A DNA stretch of 64,000 nucleotides from Phycisphaerales bacterium (GCA_003142595.1 PLMU01000003.1:6501-70500); one strand, 5' to 3'. Positions 1,797 to 59,661 are shown, counted from the stretch's first letter. Numbers and translations: made by a program. Notes: generated by a model not told the origin, from the sequence alone.

Positions 1797-3299
1797 ATGC
1801 GCAATAGAGCTTTTTCTGTGTTTGCGGTTTTTGCAGCGGCTGTATTGCCGGCTGCTGTAATGTGCTGCGGTCAAACCGATTCAAATGAACCTAATAAACC
1901 TAATCATTTTTCCGAGGTGCTGCTTGGCACGGTGTCCAATCAAATACTTCACGCTGTCCGCAGCATCGATAATCGGCATATTGCCCTTGTAACCGCCAAA
2001 GGCTCCAAGATTCAGGTTATCGTCGATGGCAAAGTTGAGCCGGAGTATGACAGTCTTATGGAAGGCGCTCTTCTTTTCAGCCCCGACAGCAATCATATGG
2101 CATACCTGGCCAGAAAGGACATAAGATGGCTTGTTGTTGCCGATGGCAAACCAGGAGCGGAATATGACGGCATCAACAAAGAAACTATCGCCTTCAGCCC
2201 CGACAGTAAACGCCTGGCTTACGTTGCAAGAAAAGCAGTCAAATATGTCGTTGTCACTGACGGCAAGAACAGCCCGGATTATAACGGCATTGTAACAAGC
2301 TCTTTTTTCAGCCCCGATAGTAAACATACCGCGTATGCCATCCAGAAGACCGGAAAATGGCAGCCTGTTATTGATGGAAATGCCGGACCGGAATACGAAC
2401 GAATCGGCTTTATCGTTTTCAGCCCCGATGGCAAGCGAGTGGCTTACGTTGCAGTAAACAAAGGCAGACCATTGGTCGTTACCGACGGAAATGCCGGACC
2501 GGGGTATGATTTTATTATGGAAAAAACTCCTATCTTCAGCTCGGATAGTCAGCACCTGATTTATGCAGGTAAAAAAGGCGACAAATGGCAGGTCGTTGTC
2601 GATGGCCAGAGCGGCCCTGAATACGATGGCATCGGCAAAGGACTTCCTCCTATTTTCAGTCCTGATGGAAAAAAAACAGTCTATATAGCCAGAAAAGAAT
2701 ATAAATGGCTGGTCGTCATTGATGGTAATGCCCAGCCGGAATGTGCCGACGTCCAGGAAGGCTCGCTCCTCTTCAGCCCCGACAGCAAACGATTGGCCTA
2801 CGTCGCCGGAATAGCTGGCAAATGGGCGGTTATCGTGGACGGAAAAGCACAATCCCAGTACGATGATATTATGGCAGGAAGTCTCTGTTTCAGTCCCGAC
2901 AGCAGTCGCCTGGCGTATGTCGCAATAAAGGGAATTAAAAAAACGGTCGTTGTCGATGGCCAGGCCGGCGTGGAATACTCCGGAATTATCCCTCCTGTTT
3001 TCAGTCCCGACAGCAAACGTTTAGCATATATAATTCAGAAAGACAAAAAATGGGCCGTCATCGTAGATGGCCAGTCCGAACGGGAATATGACGGAATTAC
3101 CCCAATTGTTTTCAGCAAGGACAGCAAAAAAATAGCTTACGGCATACAGAATAACGCTAAGTGGCAGCTCGTCGTTGATGCTGATGCAGGCCCGATATAT
3201 GATGCTTTTGTGTGCAGCCCCACAACGTCCGGCGAAAATGGTTTTGGGGCAATTGCCGTTCGAGACAATACGTTTTATCGAACGTTATGGAAACCGTAA
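1797..3299 (+). CDS. secreted or lipoprotein with about 11 tandem PD40/TolB-type (WD40-like) beta-propeller repeats
   Basis: AAGGAG SD 6 nt upstream. N-terminal signal peptide ends AAVMCCGQ. About 38-aa units repeat FSPDSKRLAYVA.K..KW.VVVDGK.GPEYDGI. Confidence 0.8.
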   Translation: MRNRAFSVFAVFAAAVLPAAVMCCGQTDSNEPNKPNHFSEVLLGTVSNQILHAVRSIDNRHIALVTAKGSKIQVIVDGKVEPEYDSLMEGALLFSPDSNHMAYLARKDIRWLVVADGKPGAEYDGINKETIAFSPDSKRLAYVARKAVKYVVVTDGKNSPDYNGIVTSSFFSPDSKHTAYAIQKTGKWQPVIDGNAGPEYERIGFIVFSPDGKRVAYVAVNKGRPLVVTDGNAGPGYDFIMEKTPIFSSDSQHLIYAGKKGDKWQVVVDGQSGPEYDGIGKGLPPIFSPDGKKTVYIARKEYKWLVVIDGNAQPECADVQEGSLLFSPDSKRLAYVAGIAGKWAVIVDGKAQSQYDDIMAGSLCFSPDSSRLAYVAIKGIKKTVVVDGQAGVEYSGIIPPVFSPDSKRLAYIIQKDKKWAVIVDGQSEREYDGITPIVFSKDSKKIAYGIQNNAKWQLVVDADAGPIYDAFVCSPTTSGENGFGAIAVRDNTFYRTLWKP

Positions 3300-5774: not shown

Positions 5775-7820
5775 ATGCCCCAACAGGTAAAAAAAACTCT
5801 TGTCATTTCGATTTATTTCGCCTTAACAATCAGTGCATTGCTGGTTTTTTGGCAGACCAGAAATTTCGATTTCGTCAATTATGACGATAATACTTATGTA
5901 TCTGAAAATCCTCACGTTCTAAACGGCCTGACTTTCGACAATATCATTTGGGCTTTTACGGCCGGCCACGCGGGAAACTGGCACCCTTTGACCTGGCTTT
6001 CGCTTATGCTCGATTGCCAGTTGTTCGGTACCAACGCAGGCTGGATGCATCTTGTAAATCTCCTTTTGCACCTTGCAAATACTCTGCTGCTCTTTACGGT
6101 TCTGACTTCGGCAAGCTCAGTCGAGCCTAAAAAAATGACCAGCGCACTGTGGCCAAGCGCATTTGTAGCTGCGGCCTTTGCACTTCACCCGATGCATGTC
6201 GAATCGGTCGCCTGGATTACTGAGCGCAAGGACGTTTTAAGCACTTTTTTTTGGCTGCTTGCGATGTTAGTGTATGTGCGGTATATTAAGCAGCCCACCG
6301 CTGCGCGATACCTGCTTGTCTTATTAATTTTCGCTTTTGGTCTTATGGCAAAGTCTATGCTGGTTACTTTGCCGTTTGTATTTCTTCTGCTGGACTATTG
6401 GCCGCTTAATCGAATAAACGGTTTTAACTGGAAAATAATATACCGGTTAATTTTGGAGAAAATCCCTTTCATCTTTCTATCAGCGGTCTCAAGCGTTATC
6501 ACCTTTTTGGTTCAGCGAAAAAGCGGTGCGATGCCGGGCATTAATATTAATGGTCTTCCTTTGAAGGCCAGGACTGTCAATGCCTTCTTATCTTACGCAA
6601 GATACATAGGGGAAATGTTCTGGCCGCAAAATATGGCGGTATTTTATCCTTTTGACGCCGGCAGCTTTGCGTTCCGGCAGGTGGCGATGTGTGTTTTGCT
6701 GCTGCTTGTTATGTCCATTTTTGTGATTCGTTTCGGACGAAATCAAAAGTATTTGCCTGTAGGCTGGTTTTGGTTTGTCGGAACACTTGTGCCTGTCATA
6801 GGATTTGTTCAGGTTGGCTCGCAGGCCTATGCCGACCGTTACACTTATGTCCCGTATATAGGCCTGTTCATAATGCTCGCATGGGGTCTGCCCGAGTTGC
6901 TGGCAAAATTGCTTTCGGCGAGCCCGGTCGAGTCGCCTCAACGAAAAATCGCTCTCGGCTTATCTATGGTGATTGTGCTGACGACTCTCGGAATATGTGC
7001 CCATCGACAGACAAGTTATTGGAAAAACAGTTTTACACTTTTTTCGCACGCACTGGCGGTAACACAAAACAATTATGTCGCATACGGTAATCTTGGCGTT
7101 GCTTACGTTAATCTCAACAGTTACAACAAGGCGATAGATGCCTATCAGCAGGCCATAAAAATCAATCCGGAATACGCCTTTGCATATCATGCTCTTGGTG
7201 TTGCCTGCGCCAAACTCAGCCGTTATCAAGATGCTATAGAATCCTATAAACAAGCTATCAGGATAAAGCCGGATGAGGCAGATGCACACTATAATCTTGG
7301 CAATTCTTATGCTAAGCTTGGCCGCTGGCCCGAGGCGATAGATGCCTATAAGCAGGCCATAAGAATCCAGCCCGATTTAGCCGATGTATACAGAAATCTT
7401 GGCAATGCCTACGCCAGACTTGGCCGTTATCAAGACGCTATAGAATTCTATAAACAAGCTATCAGGAGAAAGCCGGATGATGCCGAGGCAGAGTTTGACC
7501 TTGGTAATGCCTGCTACGCCCTTGGCCGCCGGCCCGAGGCGATAGAGACATTCAGGCAGGCCATCGGAATCAAGCCGGATTACGCCGAAGCATACTATAA
7601 TCTTGGCATTGCTTATGACGACCTTGGCCGATATGCCGAGGCGATAGATGCCTATAAGCAGGCCGTCAGAATTAAGCCGGATGACGACGAGGCTCACTGT
7701 AGGCTTGGCGCTGCTTACCTGGCGATTGGCGACAAAAATTCCGCTCTGGCAGAATATAATATTCTTAAGTCTTTGAACTCAGAACTCGCAAATAAACTCT
7801 TAAAAGAGATTAACAAATGA
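5775..7820 (+). CDS. TMTC-like GT-C membrane domain + 7 TPR (array copy 2)
   Basis: Same N-domain motifs (NYDD, HPMHVESVAWITERKDVLSTFFW). Seven TPR units. Carries two copies of the 24-nt mini-insertion. Confidence 0.85.
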   Translation: MPQQVKKTLVISIYFALTISALLVFWQTRNFDFVNYDDNTYVSENPHVLNGLTFDNIIWAFTAGHAGNWHPLTWLSLMLDCQLFGTNAGWMHLVNLLLHLANTLLLFTVLTSASSVEPKKMTSALWPSAFVAAAFALHPMHVESVAWITERKDVLSTFFWLLAMLVYVRYIKQPTAARYLLVLLIFAFGLMAKSMLVTLPFVFLLLDYWPLNRINGFNWKIIYRLILEKIPFIFLSAVSSVITFLVQRKSGAMPGININGLPLKARTVNAFLSYARYIGEMFWPQNMAVFYPFDAGSFAFRQVAMCVLLLLVMSIFVIRFGRNQKYLPVGWFWFVGTLVPVIGFVQVGSQAYADRYTYVPYIGLFIMLAWGLPELLAKLLSASPVESPQRKIALGLSMVIVLTTLGICAHRQTSYWKNSFTLFSHALAVTQNNYVAYGNLGVAYVNLNSYNKAIDAYQQAIKINPEYAFAYHALGVACAKLSRYQDAIESYKQAIRIKPDEADAHYNLGNSYAKLGRWPEAIDAYKQAIRIQPDLADVYRNLGNAYARLGRYQDAIEFYKQAIRRKPDDAEAEFDLGNACYALGRRPEAIETFRQAIGIKPDYAEAYYNLGIAYDDLGRYAEAIDAYKQAVRIKPDDDEAHCRLGAAYLAIGDKNSALAEYNILKSLNSELANKLLKEINK

Positions 7821-32802: not shown

Positions 32803-32809
32803 TAAATTT

Positions 32810-32827
32810 GACGCTGATTTCGCTGAG
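32810..32827 (+). repeat. solo copy of the GACGCTGATTTCGC(A/T)GA motif that frames the GxxExxY cassette
   Basis: GACGCTGATTTCGCTGAG lies 6 nt upstream of the hisD ATG. Confidence 0.6.
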
Positions 32828-32832
32828 AAAAA

Positions 32833-47220: not shown

Positions 47221-47883
47221 TTATTTGATGACAATTTTGGAAAAAACTATTTTATCGGGATTTTCGTTTATATAATTAACATCCGGAAAAGTCGCTCCTT
47301 CCAGCCAACCAACACTTTGCCATTCGGCATTCCAGGTATTGCCGTCTTCGGTAACCGGCCCAGTAAAATAATCTTCAATCCTGCCTTTAAGGTTGCCGGC
47401 CGGCATTTGCATTTCATAATATTCTAAAACAATCTTTACTTTCAGTGTTTTAGTGGTCTTATTATATCTTGCTATGCAAGGTCCCATTATAAACGCAGCA
47501 TAAGTATTTGGATCAGGACCGGTTATATCGACTCCCCCTTTTGCTAAATCTATTGGGCCGCCCAAAAAGTGAATAATTTTCTTAATGGAACCATCCGGTT
47601 CAAATTTAATGCCCCATTTGCTGGCGTCTCTTTCATTTACTACTGCCTCCCACACACCAACCATTGATTTAGGAAACGCGCCGGTTTTGGAATACCCTTT
47701 GAAAAAATCAGGCAACACATTTCCTACCGGGGTTTTGCCATCCCAAACTGAATTAGGGCCTTGAACAGTATTTGGGCCTTGCGGCGTCGGCGTCATCGAT
47801 ATTTTTTCATTCTGGCGGTTACAGCCGGCTAAACCTGTCAAAAAACATATAAGACTCATTATTAACATATCTCTTGCATTCAT
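47221..47883 (-). CDS. hypothetical lipoprotein
   Basis: Signal peptide with lipobox LTGLAGC. No recognised domain. Confidence 0.6.
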   Translation of the reverse strand: MNARDMLIMSLICFLTGLAGCNRQNEKISMTPTPQGPNTVQGPNSVWDGKTPVGNVLPDFFKGYSKTGAFPKSMVGVWEAVVNERDASKWGIKFEPDGSIKKIIHFLGGPIDLAKGGVDITGPDPNTYAAFIMGPCIARYNKTTKTLKVKIVLEYYEMQMPAGNLKGRIEDYFTGPVTEDGNTWNAEWQSVGWLEGATFPDVNYINENPDKIVFSKIVIK

Positions 47884-48765: not shown

Positions 48766-48970
48766 TAAATAAATATATACTTGCGGCTATTTACAGATTA
48801 AATTGCCAAAAAGCTATTACTATTTCAGCCACTAAGAATAAAAAATCTAATTAAAATACTTAGTGAGTTTTCTTCCCGCCTTGGTAGTAATAACTTCATC
48901 TCAACCCCATTTACTTTGTGTATTATAGCAGGTTGGATAAGTGAATGCAAGAAAAAAATAAAAAAATTTT

Positions 48971-49664
48971 AGACACTGATTTCGCAGACTAACGCAGAAC
49001 TCTAAATAACTATATTATTAGACGCTGATTTCGCAGAGTGACGCAGAGATATTTAAACCGCTTTTTGACGCTTATTTCGCAGATTTCACAGGCTTATTTC
49101 AAACAATTTTTGCGGGCAGTCTGAAATATCTTGCGTTTAACGCTCAACGATTCGCCGAAATTCAACAGTAGGCCGACATCTATATTTGTTGCTTTTAGGT
49201 AATTGACCAACTGTACTTCATGTGCCGAATTGAGCGTCTGAACAGCTTTAATTTCAACGATGACTTTATCGGACACTACAATATCGGCAAAATATTCTCC
49301 TACAATTTGATTTGCATAATGAACGGTAATAGGTTTTTCCGCCACAGCCGAAAGCCCTATACTTTGCAATTCTATTACCATTGCTTTGTGGTAAATTTTT
49401 TCGAGAAAATCGTACCCGAGAGTATTGTGAACATTGTGGGCTGCTTTTATAATCTTTTCCGTAAGATCCGAATGTTCATACATAATTATCTCCTTTAGCG
49501 TCAATCAGCGAAATCAGCGTCTAAAAGACCGTTTTGCGACAGTATATCTCAACTTCAGGCAGTTTACAATCCAAAAGAGTTATAAACATATCGGTAAAAT
49601 CAGCGAAATCAGCGTCAAAAAATAGTTATTTAGAGTTCTGCGTCAATCTGCGAAATCAGCGTCT
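48971..49664. mobile_element. candidate non-autonomous or novel cassette: GxxExxY gene framed by three nested pairs of inverted repeats
   Basis: The outer arms 48971-49013 and 49622-49664 are 40/43 identical in inverted orientation. Inner copies of AGACGCTGATTTCGCAGA lie at 49020 and 49066 (forward) and at 49496-49522 and 49597-49617 (inverted). Confidence 0.55.
49094..49483 (-). CDS. GxxExxY protein (PD-(D/E)XK nuclease-fold family)
   Basis: Start at the ATG at 49483 after AAGGAG. GYDFLEKIY is the GxxExxY motif. ADIVVSDKVIVEIKAV gives a D...ExK pattern. Confidence 0.8.
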   Translation of the reverse strand: MYEHSDLTEKIIKAAHNVHNTLGYDFLEKIYHKAMVIELQSIGLSAVAEKPITVHYANQIVGEYFADIVVSDKVIVEIKAVQTLNSAHEVQLVNYLKATNIDVGLLLNFGESLSVKRKIFQTARKNCLK

Positions 49665-49703
49665 AAAAAAACAAAAAAAGAGGCAGGTCCGAAAACCTGC
49701 CTC
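49665..49703 (-). terminator. intrinsic terminator of PEP-CTERM gene B
   Basis: GAGGCAGGT-CCGAAA-ACCTGCCTC hairpin followed by a long U-run on the minus strand. Confidence 0.8.
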
Positions 49704-49740
49704 CTACATTTTTACTAAACAAGCTTCTAAAAGTTAAAGC

Positions 49741-50346: not shown

Positions 50347-51591
50347 TTAATTCATCCAGAAATTATACAAACCAACTACCGGTGCTGTATCGCATTGCGG
50401 AACAACAGTATTCGCTTTGTTATAGTAAGCCTTTAAAATAGTCAAGTCAGAAGCCATTACGGGCTTCAAGGATGAATCTTTGCGATCAAAGTCTGCACAA
50501 ATAGCAGGGTAGCCAGTAACTACAAGATCCCTAACAACGGATCCGGCCTTGTTATAGCCTCCCTTTAAAATAGTCAAGTCAGAAGCCATTACGGGCTTCA
50601 AGGATGATAGTTTGCCATCGGCATCGCCGCGACATTGCTTCCTATAGCACCAGCAGTCAGGTCTGCCATATGTGACCCATCTGTTGTACTCTGTAGCAGT
50701 ACTTTTCATACATTCTTCAACTCTGAAGCTCCAAATATCGCCGGTTGTTGTGCCGACAGTATTCTTTTCATCGATGCGCCAATAGTAGACTTTGCCCTGA
50801 GCCATTGTGCCAGGTATGGCATAGCTTGTGCCGGCCTGGTTTCCAATGTATATTCCAGGACTTACTGTTCCGAAATAGACATCGTGTGAATCAACAGTAC
50901 CAGTTCCAGCAGTCCACGTTAAGCTTGTACCGATACGAGCAACGCCGGTATCTCCATTATGATTTGGACCGGTTGCCTTGCCTGGAGCTGCAAGCGTGGT
51001 ATAAATAAACGTCTTGTCGGCAGCAGTTAAATCCTGTGTGCCGTTTTCAAGAACTAGACCACCACGATAAGTAATCTCATCACTCATTATGATGGGTGGA
51101 TTGCTTACCGCACCTGGATTAACCGTGAATTTGCAAAGTGTTCCGCTTGTTGGCGGAGCATTTGTGTCGGTAGCTGCAGGATTGTCATAATACAATGAAG
51201 CGAACTCAAGCACCATGTGCGATGATGGAAGAGCAGCGCCTGCACCTGGGTCTGCTGGCGATGAAACATTTGAATCAGCCAGTGGAGTGCCCCAGTTCTG
51301 TACTACGCCGGCGGTGTCAAGACTTATCCTTGCCGGATAAATACCATAGCCCCTATGATTGGGCTGGTTGCTCTCGCCGGTCATATAGCTGCCGCTCACA
51401 ACACTTGAAAACTGTGCGCCGGTTGGGAACGTCAAATCCAAAGCAAATGCCCTTGGAAGATTAGTCGAGCACGCATCGCTATAGGTGAGATCAATGACAT
51501 TGGTCGTGCCTTCTCTAGTCAGATTGACAGACAAAGCAAAAACTGGTGAAGCCATTAAAGCAATCGCTAAAACTAAAATCAGCTTCTTCAT
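50347..51591 (-). CDS. secreted protein with two C-terminal dockerin-like repeats
   Basis: Start at the ATG at 51591 (signal peptide MKKLILVLAIALMASPVFA). The internal segment VYFGT...YYWRIDE...GDIWSF is present. The segment D.DGK/DRKDSSLKPVMASDLTILK..YNKA is duplicated. Confidence 0.7.
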   Translation of the reverse strand: MKKLILVLAIALMASPVFALSVNLTREGTTNVIDLTYSDACSTNLPRAFALDLTFPTGAQFSSVVSGSYMTGESNQPNHRGYGIYPARISLDTAGVVQNWGTPLADSNVSSPADPGAGAALPSSHMVLEFASLYYDNPAATDTNAPPTSGTLCKFTVNPGAVSNPPIIMSDEITYRGGLVLENGTQDLTAADKTFIYTTLAAPGKATGPNHNGDTGVARIGTSLTWTAGTGTVDSHDVYFGTVSPGIYIGNQAGTSYAIPGTMAQGKVYYWRIDEKNTVGTTTGDIWSFRVEECMKSTATEYNRWVTYGRPDCWCYRKQCRGDADGKLSSLKPVMASDLTILKGGYNKAGSVVRDLVVTGYPAICADFDRKDSSLKPVMASDLTILKAYYNKANTVVPQCDTAPVVGLYNFWMN

Positions 51592-52233
51592 TTCATACCT
51601 CTCTAAAATAATTCTCTTTTTCTTCTTACGATATTCACATTTTTCGCTGAGCAAACAACTCAACAAGGTTCTGGTTTCTTTTTCTTTCTATTACCATTTT
51701 GCTCGAAAGAAACCCAACAAGCAAAAAAAACTCAAACGTCAATCAGACTCACAAAGCAAGTCTGACTCGAGTTTTCTCCTTTTTCCAGCACCTCCTTTCG
51801 GCCTAATGGCAAAAAGAAAAGACATTGTTTCTTTAGTGCTAATATCGTTCGGCAACATAAGCACAAGCCTATATTATCATTCTGCCATACAAAAATCAAG
51901 GAAAAAATAAAAAAAATGCTGATTTCAGTGCTGAAAACGGCATTAAAGAGCCTAAAGAGCGACATATCTTTGCCTATTTTGTAGTATAGTATGTCCTATA
52001 AAAGTAGGACCTATTTTAAAAAATTTTTTACAGAAAATTATTCTTACTATTAACTACAAAAATGCGTACTTTCTTAAAATAAATCGAAATATTTTTTTTT
52101 TATAGGAATTTATATGCAAAAGACAATATGAACACAAAACATCTTGTTATCTTTAATTTCACCTTAAAAAAGTGCACAAAAAAGACATTTAATATATAAT
52201 TAATGAAAAATTTCAAAAATTTATACAAATAAT

Positions 52234-58878: not shown

Positions 58879-59661
58879 ATGCAAACTAAAAACATAATAT
58901 GCCTTCTTGTTGTATCGCTCACCGTCGCTCTGCTGGCCGGCGGCTGCAACTCTCAGCAACAATACGATGACGTGAAGCTGCGAAATCAAAGTCAACAACA
59001 GAGAATAGACGAACTCGAAAGCCAGCTTAATGTAACAAAATTAAAACTTACGCAAACCGAGAAACAACTCGCTGAACTGCAGGCGTCATCTGCTGCGGAT
59101 ATCGATGCACTGAACAAAAAAATCGAAGCGCTGCAGAACGATATCACAAAGAAAGAAGAATTGATTAAGACGCTGCAGGCTTCACTGGGCGGCGCTGTTC
59201 TTCCGCCGGAACTTGCCAGCGAACTGCTGAAGTTCGCCGCTGAAAACCCGGATATGGTTACCTTCGATGAAGCGACCGGAATGGTTAAATTCAAGAGCGA
59301 CCTGCTGTTTGAAAAAGGCAGCGACGTGGTTGCGCCTCAAGCGGCCGAATTGATGAAAAAGCTTAGTGAAATCATCAACTCGAAAGCCGCCGAAGGCTTC
59401 GATGTTATAATCGTCGGCCATACCGATGATATTCCGATTAAAAAATCAGATACTATGACTATGCATCCGACAAACTGGCATCTGTCAGTGCACAGAGCTA
59501 TCGCTGTTGAAAAACTTATGGAATCAGAAGGCGTAAAGCCGACACGATTGGGCGTAAAGGGCTACGGCGAATACAGGCCTCTTGAAGCCAACGAAGCAGG
59601 CAAAAAAGGTAATGCAAAGAACAGACGCGTTGAAATTTATCTTGTGCCGGCCGGAAAATAA
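58879..59661 (+). CDS. OmpA/MotB-family lipoprotein with N-terminal coiled coil
   Basis: Lipobox LLAGGC. Coiled-coil heptads. The C-terminal peptidoglycan-binding domain has GHTD....N..LS..RA and NRRVEIYL. Confidence 0.8.
   Translation: MQTKNIICLLVVSLTVALLAGGCNSQQQYDDVKLRNQSQQQRIDELESQLNVTKLKLTQTEKQLAELQASSAADIDALNKKIEALQNDITKKEELIKTLQASLGGAVLPPELASELLKFAAENPDMVTFDEATGMVKFKSDLLFEKGSDVVAPQAAELMKKLSEIINSKAAEGFDVIIVGHTDDIPIKKSDTMTMHPTNWHLSVHRAIAVEKLMESEGVKPTRLGVKGYGEYRPLEANEAGKKGNAKNRRVEIYLVPAGK

Follow-up and report, generated by a model that had tools for sequence, protein, structure and literature searches.

The stretch of DNA analysed here, referred to as the window, comprises 64,000 nucleotides (nt) from a Phycisphaerales bacterium (GCA_003142595.1, PLMU01000003.1:6501-70500) and contains a small gene of the GxxExxY family that is enclosed on both sides by inverted arrays of a short repeat. 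The whole unit lies between two PEP-CTERM paralogues that are 75% identical, which agrees with an earlier reading made from the sequence alone (sequence-only reading), in which highly similar paralogues had been noticed on both flanks and the unit had been proposed to be a mobile cassette. In our best reading, the feature is the resident copy of a widespread compact element that is composed of a GxxExxY nuclease gene encoding ~125 amino acids (aa) and of terminal inverted arms. All coordinates of units and repeat copies are positions in the whole window; the gene is encoded on the minus strand, as are all genes around the element. The features of the locus are the following:

49094..49483, minus strand: GxxExxY / PD-(D/E)XK nuclease-fold gene, 129 aa, with PF13366 and TIGR04256 matches
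48967..49016, plus strand: unit A, outermost downstream arm unit, partner of F (inverted repeat I1)
49015..49062, plus strand: unit B, second downstream arm unit (repeat and core scans)
49062..49110, plus strand: unit C, innermost downstream arm with the core at 49067-49083, overlapping the stop codon at 49094-49096 (repeat and core scans)
49479..49526, minus strand: unit D, innermost upstream arm (repeat and core scans)
49527..49572, minus strand: non-repeat spacer of 46 nt between D and E, with a promoter-like site
49573..49621, minus strand: unit E, second upstream arm unit (9-nt period at 49597-49614 according to Tandem Repeats Finder, TRF)
49619..49668, minus strand: unit F, outermost upstream arm unit, partner of A (I1; TRF 9-nt period at 49637-49663)
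49678..49705, minus strand: intrinsic terminator of the upstream PEP-CTERM gene, with a 12-bp stem followed by TTTTTTTGTTTT; element boundary
48922..48950, minus strand: TTGCAT-17-TATAAT before the downstream PEP-CTERM paralogue (direct reading); the other boundary
32807..32829, plus strand: solo arm copy TTTGACGCTGATTTCGCTGAG (core scan), within the 30-nt spacer that precedes hisD, in sense orientation

The outer inverted pair formed by the units A and F comprises 50 nt on each side and is 92% complementary in an inverted-repeat search (I1), which extends the arms that the sequence-only reading had placed at 48971-49013 and 49622-49664 with 40 of 43 positions identical. The core GACGCTGATTTCGCAGA, with up to three mismatches allowed, occurs eight times in the window compared to 0.16 expected occurrences, and 0 of 100 shuffles reached eight. 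Six of these matches belong to the nuclease locus, with forward copies starting at 48972, 49021 and 49067 and reverse copies at 49505, 49600 and 49647, by which the further copies that had been reported inside the outer arms are confirmed as parts of units of ~47-50 nt. The two remaining matches are the solo copy at 32810 and a match at 58977 that is weak (three mismatches) and probably due to chance. The units are composed of 9-nt subrepeats CGCWGATTN, as read from the sequence and by TRF, and three forward units (A, B and C; plus strand) lie 3' of the gene and three reverse units (D, E and F) 5' of it. The innermost units abut the open reading frame (ORF), as had been stated before: unit C takes the position of the reverse arm that abuts the stop codon throughout the family, and unit D, which reads TTTTAGACGCTGATTTCGCTGATTGACGC on the gene strand and continues into the ribosome-binding site AAAGGAGA and the ATG, takes that of the family-wide forward arm within 50 nt upstream of the gene. 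Of the three nested pairs originally described, the repeats are real, and their arrangement is better understood as one family-typical arm pair at the ORF with further, tandemly amplified units; in this Phycisphaerae-like lineage the arm unit has evidently been amplified to three ~47-nt units per side.

The 129-aa protein matches the profiles PF13366 (PDDEXK_3; 3e-40) and TIGR04256 (GxxExxY; 8e-39) with scores above the curated cut-offs (137.7 bits vs 22 and 132.6 bits vs 35, respectively), and PF13366 is its sole significant Pfam match. In the name-giving motif, which reads …GYDFLEKIY… here and GFLEKVY in orthologues, an Asp replaces the first Gly, so that of the GxxExxY motif and the D...ExK pattern claimed earlier the first Gly is missing while the nuclease residues and fold are present. 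E28, D67 and K79 are invariant and E77 is at least 90% conserved among 36 homologues. An AlphaFold2 (AF2) model (pLDDT 89.9, pTM 0.85) shows the ααβββαββ order of the PD-(D/E)XK core, and a Foldseek comparison with the PDB retrieved Cas4 SSO0001 (4ic1, E = 2e-4), lambda exonuclease, LHK-Exo and MGME1; a sequence search of the PDB gave no solved structure related to the protein. Structural modelling thus supports the nuclease fold suggested by the sequence-only reading: according to the model, the protein has a PD-(D/E)XK nuclease fold with its catalytic residues, and nuclease activity itself is predicted. The family is very large, as 23,346 representatives of clusters formed at 50% identity have a profile match with E <= 1e-3. 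Around 20 of the top 150 family representatives (P0241-P0245, P0258, P0279 and others) are 250-280 aa long and contain two tandem GxxExxY domains; these proteins could be fused dimers or result from read-through of tandem elements.

The association of gene and motif, whose co-occurrence the sequence-only reading had proposed to examine, is general and oriented among relatives of 50-95% identity, for which a scan of metagenome contigs by protein alignment provided 80 loci. The 8-mer ACRCNGAT is found within 200 nt of the gene in 80/80 loci, in forward orientation upstream in 75 and in reverse orientation downstream in 63 of them. Within 50 nt of the gene, its density reaches 15 per kb upstream (forward orientation) and 19 per kb downstream (reverse orientation), compared to a background of ~0.3 per kb at distances above 1 kb, which corresponds to a local enrichment of ~50-fold. 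The arm of the family consists of two to four phased subrepeats of 9-10 nt with the core ACRCNGAT (GACGCWGATTTCGCWGA in the window), has an outer end with the rough consensus (A/T)T(A/T)G(A/G)ACRCNGAT(K)A(C)RCNGATT, and reaches or overlaps the start and stop codons. Successive cores are spaced by 9 nt (55 cases), 10 nt (25) or 18-20 nt (19), i.e., by about one helical turn. Similarity between arms is higher within an element (22.05/35) than between elements (17.6 ± 0.46; 1000 permutations, maximum 19.3), and elements with more similar proteins also tend to have more similar arms (Mantel r = 0.36, permutation maximum 0.22).

More distant copies carry arms as well: a copy on a Treponema megaplasmid (43% identity) has the arms ACACGGAT, and a copy on a Fusobacteria plasmid (49% identity) shows the motif at both sides. 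A divergent GxxExxY paralogue from Planctomycetes (L027) is enclosed in an inverted frame of another 9-nt subrepeat, CACGAAG(G/A)(A/C) (5880-5925 and 6410-6445), which may represent a distinct pair of protein and arm specificity. Arrays of CACGAAG(G/A)(A/C) were also observed in other intergenic regions of Planctomycetes (L043, L120, L131). In a Pirellulales locus (L063), the flanks of the GxxExxY gene hold inverted arrays of the CACAGATT type; a masked run of N directly upstream of this gene (L063:1502-1600) leaves the arm there only partly readable. Contigs with close homologues are mostly shorter than 2 kb, which fits assembly breaks at the flanking repeats and therefore implies arms in multiple copies in those genomes. 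Phages or plasmids were considered as the main habitat of the gene and set aside, as two weak viral contigs and seven plasmids carried it.

The elements measure 402-909 bp (median 517 bp) and lie among host genes from which they are typically separated by gaps of only ~1-35 nt, with neighbours that are co-directional in 59/62 cases upstream and in 44/52 cases downstream. Among the host contexts are capsule epimerase genes, the stretch upstream of polA and the sites between nuoJ and nuoK, between the genes for aconitase and PrpD and between those for an amidohydrolase and a CN-hydrolase. Within one Bacteroidia clade, the element occupies the nuo operon of L149, L156, L223/L224 and L226/L227, and empty sites between nuoJ and nuoK are found in L222 (TAA-cgt-ATG) and in L228/L229 (TAG-t-ATG). 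According to flank identity, L222 is a sister of L149 (84%, 83%) and L228 is an outgroup (~73%); within the clade, element identity tracks flank identity. The simplest history suggested by these sequences is that the nuo operon gained the element once and that the L222 lineage later lost it cleanly.

The lodging of the elements in sense orientation inside operons is a property that would also suit an RNA cassette similar to an intervening sequence (IVS), whose arms would pair in the operon transcript to form a stem that is cut by RNase III or that stabilises or insulates the mRNA, with the gene spreading by ordinary recombination or horizontal transfer and without any part of the arms in DNA recombination. 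The transcript of the window's element (741 nt) is indeed predicted to pair from end to end (-237 kcal/mol, z = -8.5), and size and layout equal those of the Coxiella 23S rRNA IVS, which has 428 nt, an ORF in the loop and a terminal stem of 28 bp and is cut by RNase III (PMC4990558). Moreover, the nuo operon of L228 holds a PF05635 gene with an inverted-repeat frame of its own. However, such a stem needs complementarity alone, which leaves unexplained that the core ACRCNGAT is kept across phyla, that direct subrepeats of 9-10 nt are phased within the arms and that the two arms frequently mismatch at the N position; solo arms, arms in direct repeat (L132, L230) and outward-facing pairs (L005) cannot form a stem, and no Rfam match was found. 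We consider this RNA role, the main rival of the explanation favoured below, rather unlikely, and a nuclease-arm element and an IVS-like role in RNA are not mutually exclusive. The PF05635 gene itself encodes a '23S rRNA intervening sequence protein' (four-helix bundle) and lies in sense orientation between nuoK and nuoL (L228:3320-3740, also in L229), framed by …AACTATAAACGAT / ATCGTTTATAGTT…; this suggests a parallel class of operon-lodged cassettes with inverted-repeat frames.

Arms also occur without a gene. A 17-mer scan of 596 Gb, for which ~140 chance matches are expected, gave mostly single hits in coding sequences of Proteobacteria and Actinobacteria, which we attribute to chance, and in addition ~25 genuine intergenic arrays or hairpins in Planctomycetota, Bacteroidota, Chloroflexota, Acidobacteriota and a betaproteobacterium. 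The typical gene-less form is an arm-loop-arm hairpin of 80-110 bp, often in tandem (L048, L106, L031, L099). On contigs that bear an element (L137, L146, L189, L192, L202), gene-less arm pairs are found in other intergenic regions, and they match the arms of the co-resident element at 24-27/30 positions vs 16-18 for the arms of other loci. ORFs beside the arrays are unrelated (MjaI-like endonuclease, YkuD, nucleotidyl transferase). Two further arrangements were observed. In L005 (4640-4900), outward-facing arm pairs (…ATCAGCGTC-tttttattt-GACGCTGAT…) are duplicated in tandem, and the 3' end of the upstream gene is part of the duplication. In L043 (500-1570), mixed arrays (GACGCTGAT, CACGAAT/CACGAAG, CACTGAT) adjoin the gene of an MjaI-type restriction endonuclease (PF09568, 1.6e-34).

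The abundance of gene-less copies bears on two other explanations. The arms might be generic intergenic repeats of the host, similar to repetitive extragenic palindromic (REP) sequences or bacterial interspersed mosaic elements (BIMEs), that accumulated around the gene without a functional link, in agreement with motif hairpins in many intergenic regions without a nearby GxxExxY gene: a profile search that included hidden divergent genes detected one within 8 kb in only 2 of ~25 array loci (L063, L027). We give this explanation very little probability, since it conflicts with the motif in fixed orientation at 80/80 GxxExxY loci, with its ~50-fold local enrichment, with arms that touch the start and stop codons, and also with the co-variation of protein and arms. 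Alternatively, the gene could be a selfish nuclease of the homing type that cuts gene-less hairpins or empty sites, upon which repair copies the gene in via arm homology, the arms representing the split target. Several gene-less pairs (L048, L106, L031, L099) resemble such 'empty' versions with a short loop at the position of the gene, a target-site duplication was not found at the family loci, and small PD-(D/E)XK homing endonucleases such as I-Ssp6803I are known. However, the relatives with empty sites between nuoJ and nuoK have no arm hairpin at the site, and therefore the arms arrived there together with the gene; furthermore, gene-less copies far exceed gene-bearing ones on L189 and L202, which is the pattern of derivatives mobilised in trans. 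Homing is thus unlikely in our view.

The history of the window's own copy is one of long residence. At least 23 contigs, which stem from several metagenomes, encode the identical protein without exception in one and the same context, and relatives with 62-95% aa identity share the cluster p439 / PEP-CTERM / GxxExxY / PEP-CTERM / p220, which is syntenic in L130-L142. An empty site between the two PEP-CTERM genes, which would have revealed recent mobility at this place, was found neither at these orthologous loci nor on the contigs sharing the identical upstream PEP-CTERM protein, 23/23 of which carry the gene; the window's copy is therefore an old, fixed resident that has not been mobile recently, in line with a refuting outcome that the sequence-only reading had named itself. 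Support for the proposed mobile cassette accordingly comes from related elements, which are clearly insertions into conserved operons and vary in presence among close relatives, and not from the copy in the window. The ratio of nonsynonymous to synonymous substitution (dN/dS) is 0.09-0.16 in comparison with close orthologues. Between the window and L131/L132, synonymous sites are saturated (proportion of synonymous differences, pS, 0.79-0.83) and yet the arm core TTAGACGCTGATTTCGCAGATTACGCAGA is nearly unchanged, which indicates that the arms are constrained or continually homogenised. Judged by these sequence comparisons, the copy is ancient, fixed and vertically inherited under purifying selection. 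One syntenic orthologue (L139:470-853) is apparently decaying, as its catalytic Glu is replaced by an in-frame stop (…VIL*IKAV…).

Arm copy number and orientation differ among orthologous loci. L126, which belongs to the same species, has a hybrid unit that combines F and D and lacks E as well as the spacer, corresponding to a deletion of 142 bp; L130 (95% aa identity) contains the inner 589 bp in inverted orientation (90.8% identity) between two collinear flanks, and the junctions of the inversion carry sequence changes of their own. Both rearrangements appear to result from recombination between the element's own repeats. Together with the gene in L141, which is also oriented opposite to its neighbours, and with neighbours that are paralogues of a surface protein, the L130 inversion could point to an inverton, in which a segment flipping between inverted repeats controls the adjacent PEP-CTERM surface proteins. 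Against such a switch, the repeats do not enclose the candidate promoter of the downstream gene, no invertase is encoded nearby, and 23/23 contigs of the window's species show a single orientation (assemblies hide minor variants), opposite ones being seen only between genomes; flipping must be rare because 95% of the upstream neighbours across the family are co-directional, and the L130 inversion could itself be an assembly choice across repeats of 50 nt. The inverton is thus highly improbable. In L137, which stems from a relative of the window's organism, a PEP-CTERM gene is followed by a gene-less array (2961-3170) in which four arm units of ~34 nt are forward and two are reverse; the p439 gene is duplicated there, and the GxxExxY gene lies after the second p439 copy.

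The explanation that we favour, and to which we give an even chance, is that the nuclease and the terminal arms together form an element whose protein synapses and cuts the ends and can also act in trans on gene-less arm pairs. It builds on the architecture and its generality, on the co-inheritance of gene and arms, on gene-less copies of the same variant and on the gain and clean loss in the nuo operon; DNA binding, cleavage and transposition chemistry are steps that we infer. The core that is kept across phyla and the helical phasing of direct subrepeats argue for a sequence-specific multimeric protein at both ends, and the nuclease is favoured as this protein because it is the sole protein that is always present and its catalytic residues are conserved. 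In the proposed mechanism, the nuclease would bind the phased subrepeats at both ends as an oligomer, would bring the ends of the element together and would cut at or near them, by which gene and arms would together become mobile. The nuclease would also mobilise pairs of arms without a gene in trans, comparable to the mobilisation of REPINs (REP doublets forming hairpins) by RAYTs (REP-associated tyrosine transposases) or of miniature inverted-repeat transposable elements (MITEs) by insertion sequences (IS), with an unrelated enzyme. More tentatively, and with clearly less than even confidence, we propose that GxxExxY proteins are the enzymes of a new and very large class of minimal mobile elements of ~0.45 kb, which would be distributed over many phyla, lie preferentially in sense orientation inside operons, and mobilise their own gene as well as abundant gene-less arm pairs. 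In this view, a bare PD-(D/E)XK nuclease would recognise the phased 9-10-nt subrepeats of the terminal arms, and the system would correspond to REPIN/RAYT or IS/MITE pairs with another catalytic fold.

Several points weigh against this nuclease-arm explanation. The 80 loci represent one subfamily and had been inspected before the motif was defined, and at the N position of the core, the two arms frequently carry different nucleotides. Target-site duplications, which had been named as a possible sign of mobility, gave no signal in 57 family loci, with no excess of matches at offsets of 0-7 and lengths of 2-8 (maximum z 2.4). Outside the element, the repeat occurs once in the 64-kb window, whose locus is without an empty site among the relatives examined, and in L132 a forward arm copy lies on both sides of the gene. 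The protein core of 125 aa has no obvious separate DNA-binding domain and cannot ligate, and therefore host functions would be needed. Finally, the inversion and the deletion were read from short-read assemblies, which may mis-resolve repeats.

Some further features of the window concern transcription and neighbouring genes. The spacer at 49527-49572 contains the putative promoter TTGTAA-17-TATACT (49569-49541), which matches the consensus at 9/12 positions in a scan; the spacer is kept in L130 and missing in L126. The TTGCAT-17-TATAAT before the downstream paralogue is not listed by the promoter scan, as its -35 hexamer matches at only 3/6 positions and falls below the thresholds, and the stretch that contains it is conserved in L126, L130 and L131. 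A sigma-70 promoter reading of the repeat units (TTGACG-16-TATTTT) also gives 9/12 and was discarded, as it is not better than in shuffled sequence, and a resemblance of the arms to sites of the integration host factor (IHF) or to DnaA boxes was unconvincing in a check by eye. The sole hit of an Rfam search was a sub-threshold L20-leader on the terminator. The element was also considered as an integron gene cassette and rejected: the arms have no GTTRRRY core by reading, a single gene is present instead of an array, and no integrase gene is called within ±5 kb. The genes p220 (47221-47883) and p439 (50347-51666) have no match in Pfam or NCBIfam and accompany the PEP-CTERM paralogues in all relatives examined. 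The solo arm copy at 32807-32829 lies between an unannotated ORF of 329 aa upstream and hisD (Histidinol_dh, 2e-148) downstream, in agreement with the position just upstream of hisD given by the sequence-only reading, and could be a remnant of an element or a stand-alone arm.

For the GxxExxY family, openly searchable full texts contain only passing mentions under the names GxxExxY, PF13366, PDDEXK_3 and TIGR04256, so that the view of its biology as essentially undescribed holds for this literature; a description of the present arrangement of gene and repeats was not found in the searchable literature on REP, PDDEXK, IVS and four-helix-bundle themes. The conserved and oriented motif at both ends of the gene is the first concrete candidate substrate for a family to which no function is assigned, and the gene-less copies and the gain and loss within operons lend it further weight. 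Should the nuclease indeed act on the arms, it would represent a new class of enzymes for the mobilisation of repeats and elements and would offer a candidate origin for short intergenic hairpin repeats in Planctomycetota, Bacteroidota, Chloroflexota and others, with compact sequence-specific pairs of nuclease and site as a by-product. A similar logic may extend to the genes of the four-helix-bundle 'IVS protein', which are apparently framed and inserted alike.

Among known systems, free-standing homing endonuclease genes resemble the element in being small selfish nuclease genes between host genes that are present or absent in relatives; to our knowledge, they are not framed by conserved inverted arrays and do not give rise to gene-less repeat derivatives. 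Minimal IS and MITEs (IS200/IS605; Correia/NEMIS, Nezha) are likewise tiny, with one short ORF, structured ends and gene-less miniatures that share these ends, and of the traits of classical IS and MITEs the terminal inverted repeats are present here and filled/empty polymorphism is seen in relatives, not at the window locus. They differ from the present element, which encodes neither a DDE nor an HUH transposase, shows no target-site duplication and ends in phased subrepeat arrays. The 23S rRNA IVS with ORF (S23p / PF05635) of Coxiella and Leptospira shares a length of ~430 bp, an ORF of ~120 aa, stem-forming terminal repeats, a place within a transcribed unit and vertical inheritance (PMC4990558). 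In contrast, it sits in helices of the rRNA and not between protein-coding genes, its ORF encodes a four-helix bundle, its stem has no conserved phased motif, and removal by RNase III has been demonstrated for it. A further lead is offered by the CGTC REPs, which PMC3733652 describes as having 8-9-bp stems and 4-5-nt loops, as occurring in several phyla including Planctomycetes, and as being without a cognate enzyme. The window's arms read …GCGTC at their outer end; identity with these REPs was rejected, as the structure of 8-9-bp stem and 4-5-nt loop is not seen in the arms. The closest likeness in organisation is to REPIN-RAYT systems, in which a small nuclease-type gene lies between inverted short repeats and gene-less inverted doublets are dispersed over intergenic regions of the same genome, often in tandem clusters (PMC3733652). 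Like these 'REPtron/TIRtron' arrangements, the element has inverted repeat copies that flank a small gene, gene-less doublets elsewhere and vertical persistence at a fixed locus. The differences are that RAYT is a transposase of the HUH/Y1 (IS200/IS605) type whereas the protein here has a PD-(D/E)XK fold, and that a REP is a single short palindrome with a GTAG or CGTC tag whereas the arms here are arrays of 9-10-nt direct subrepeats; moreover, the gene is embedded in sense orientation in operons here, and dispersed copies look rare in the window's genome (one solo copy in 64 kb). With neither an HUH nor a DDE enzyme, without target-site duplication and outside of rRNA, the element falls outside the definitions of REPIN/RAYT, IVS and IS/MITE, yet by analogy it appears to work like a REPIN/RAYT system.

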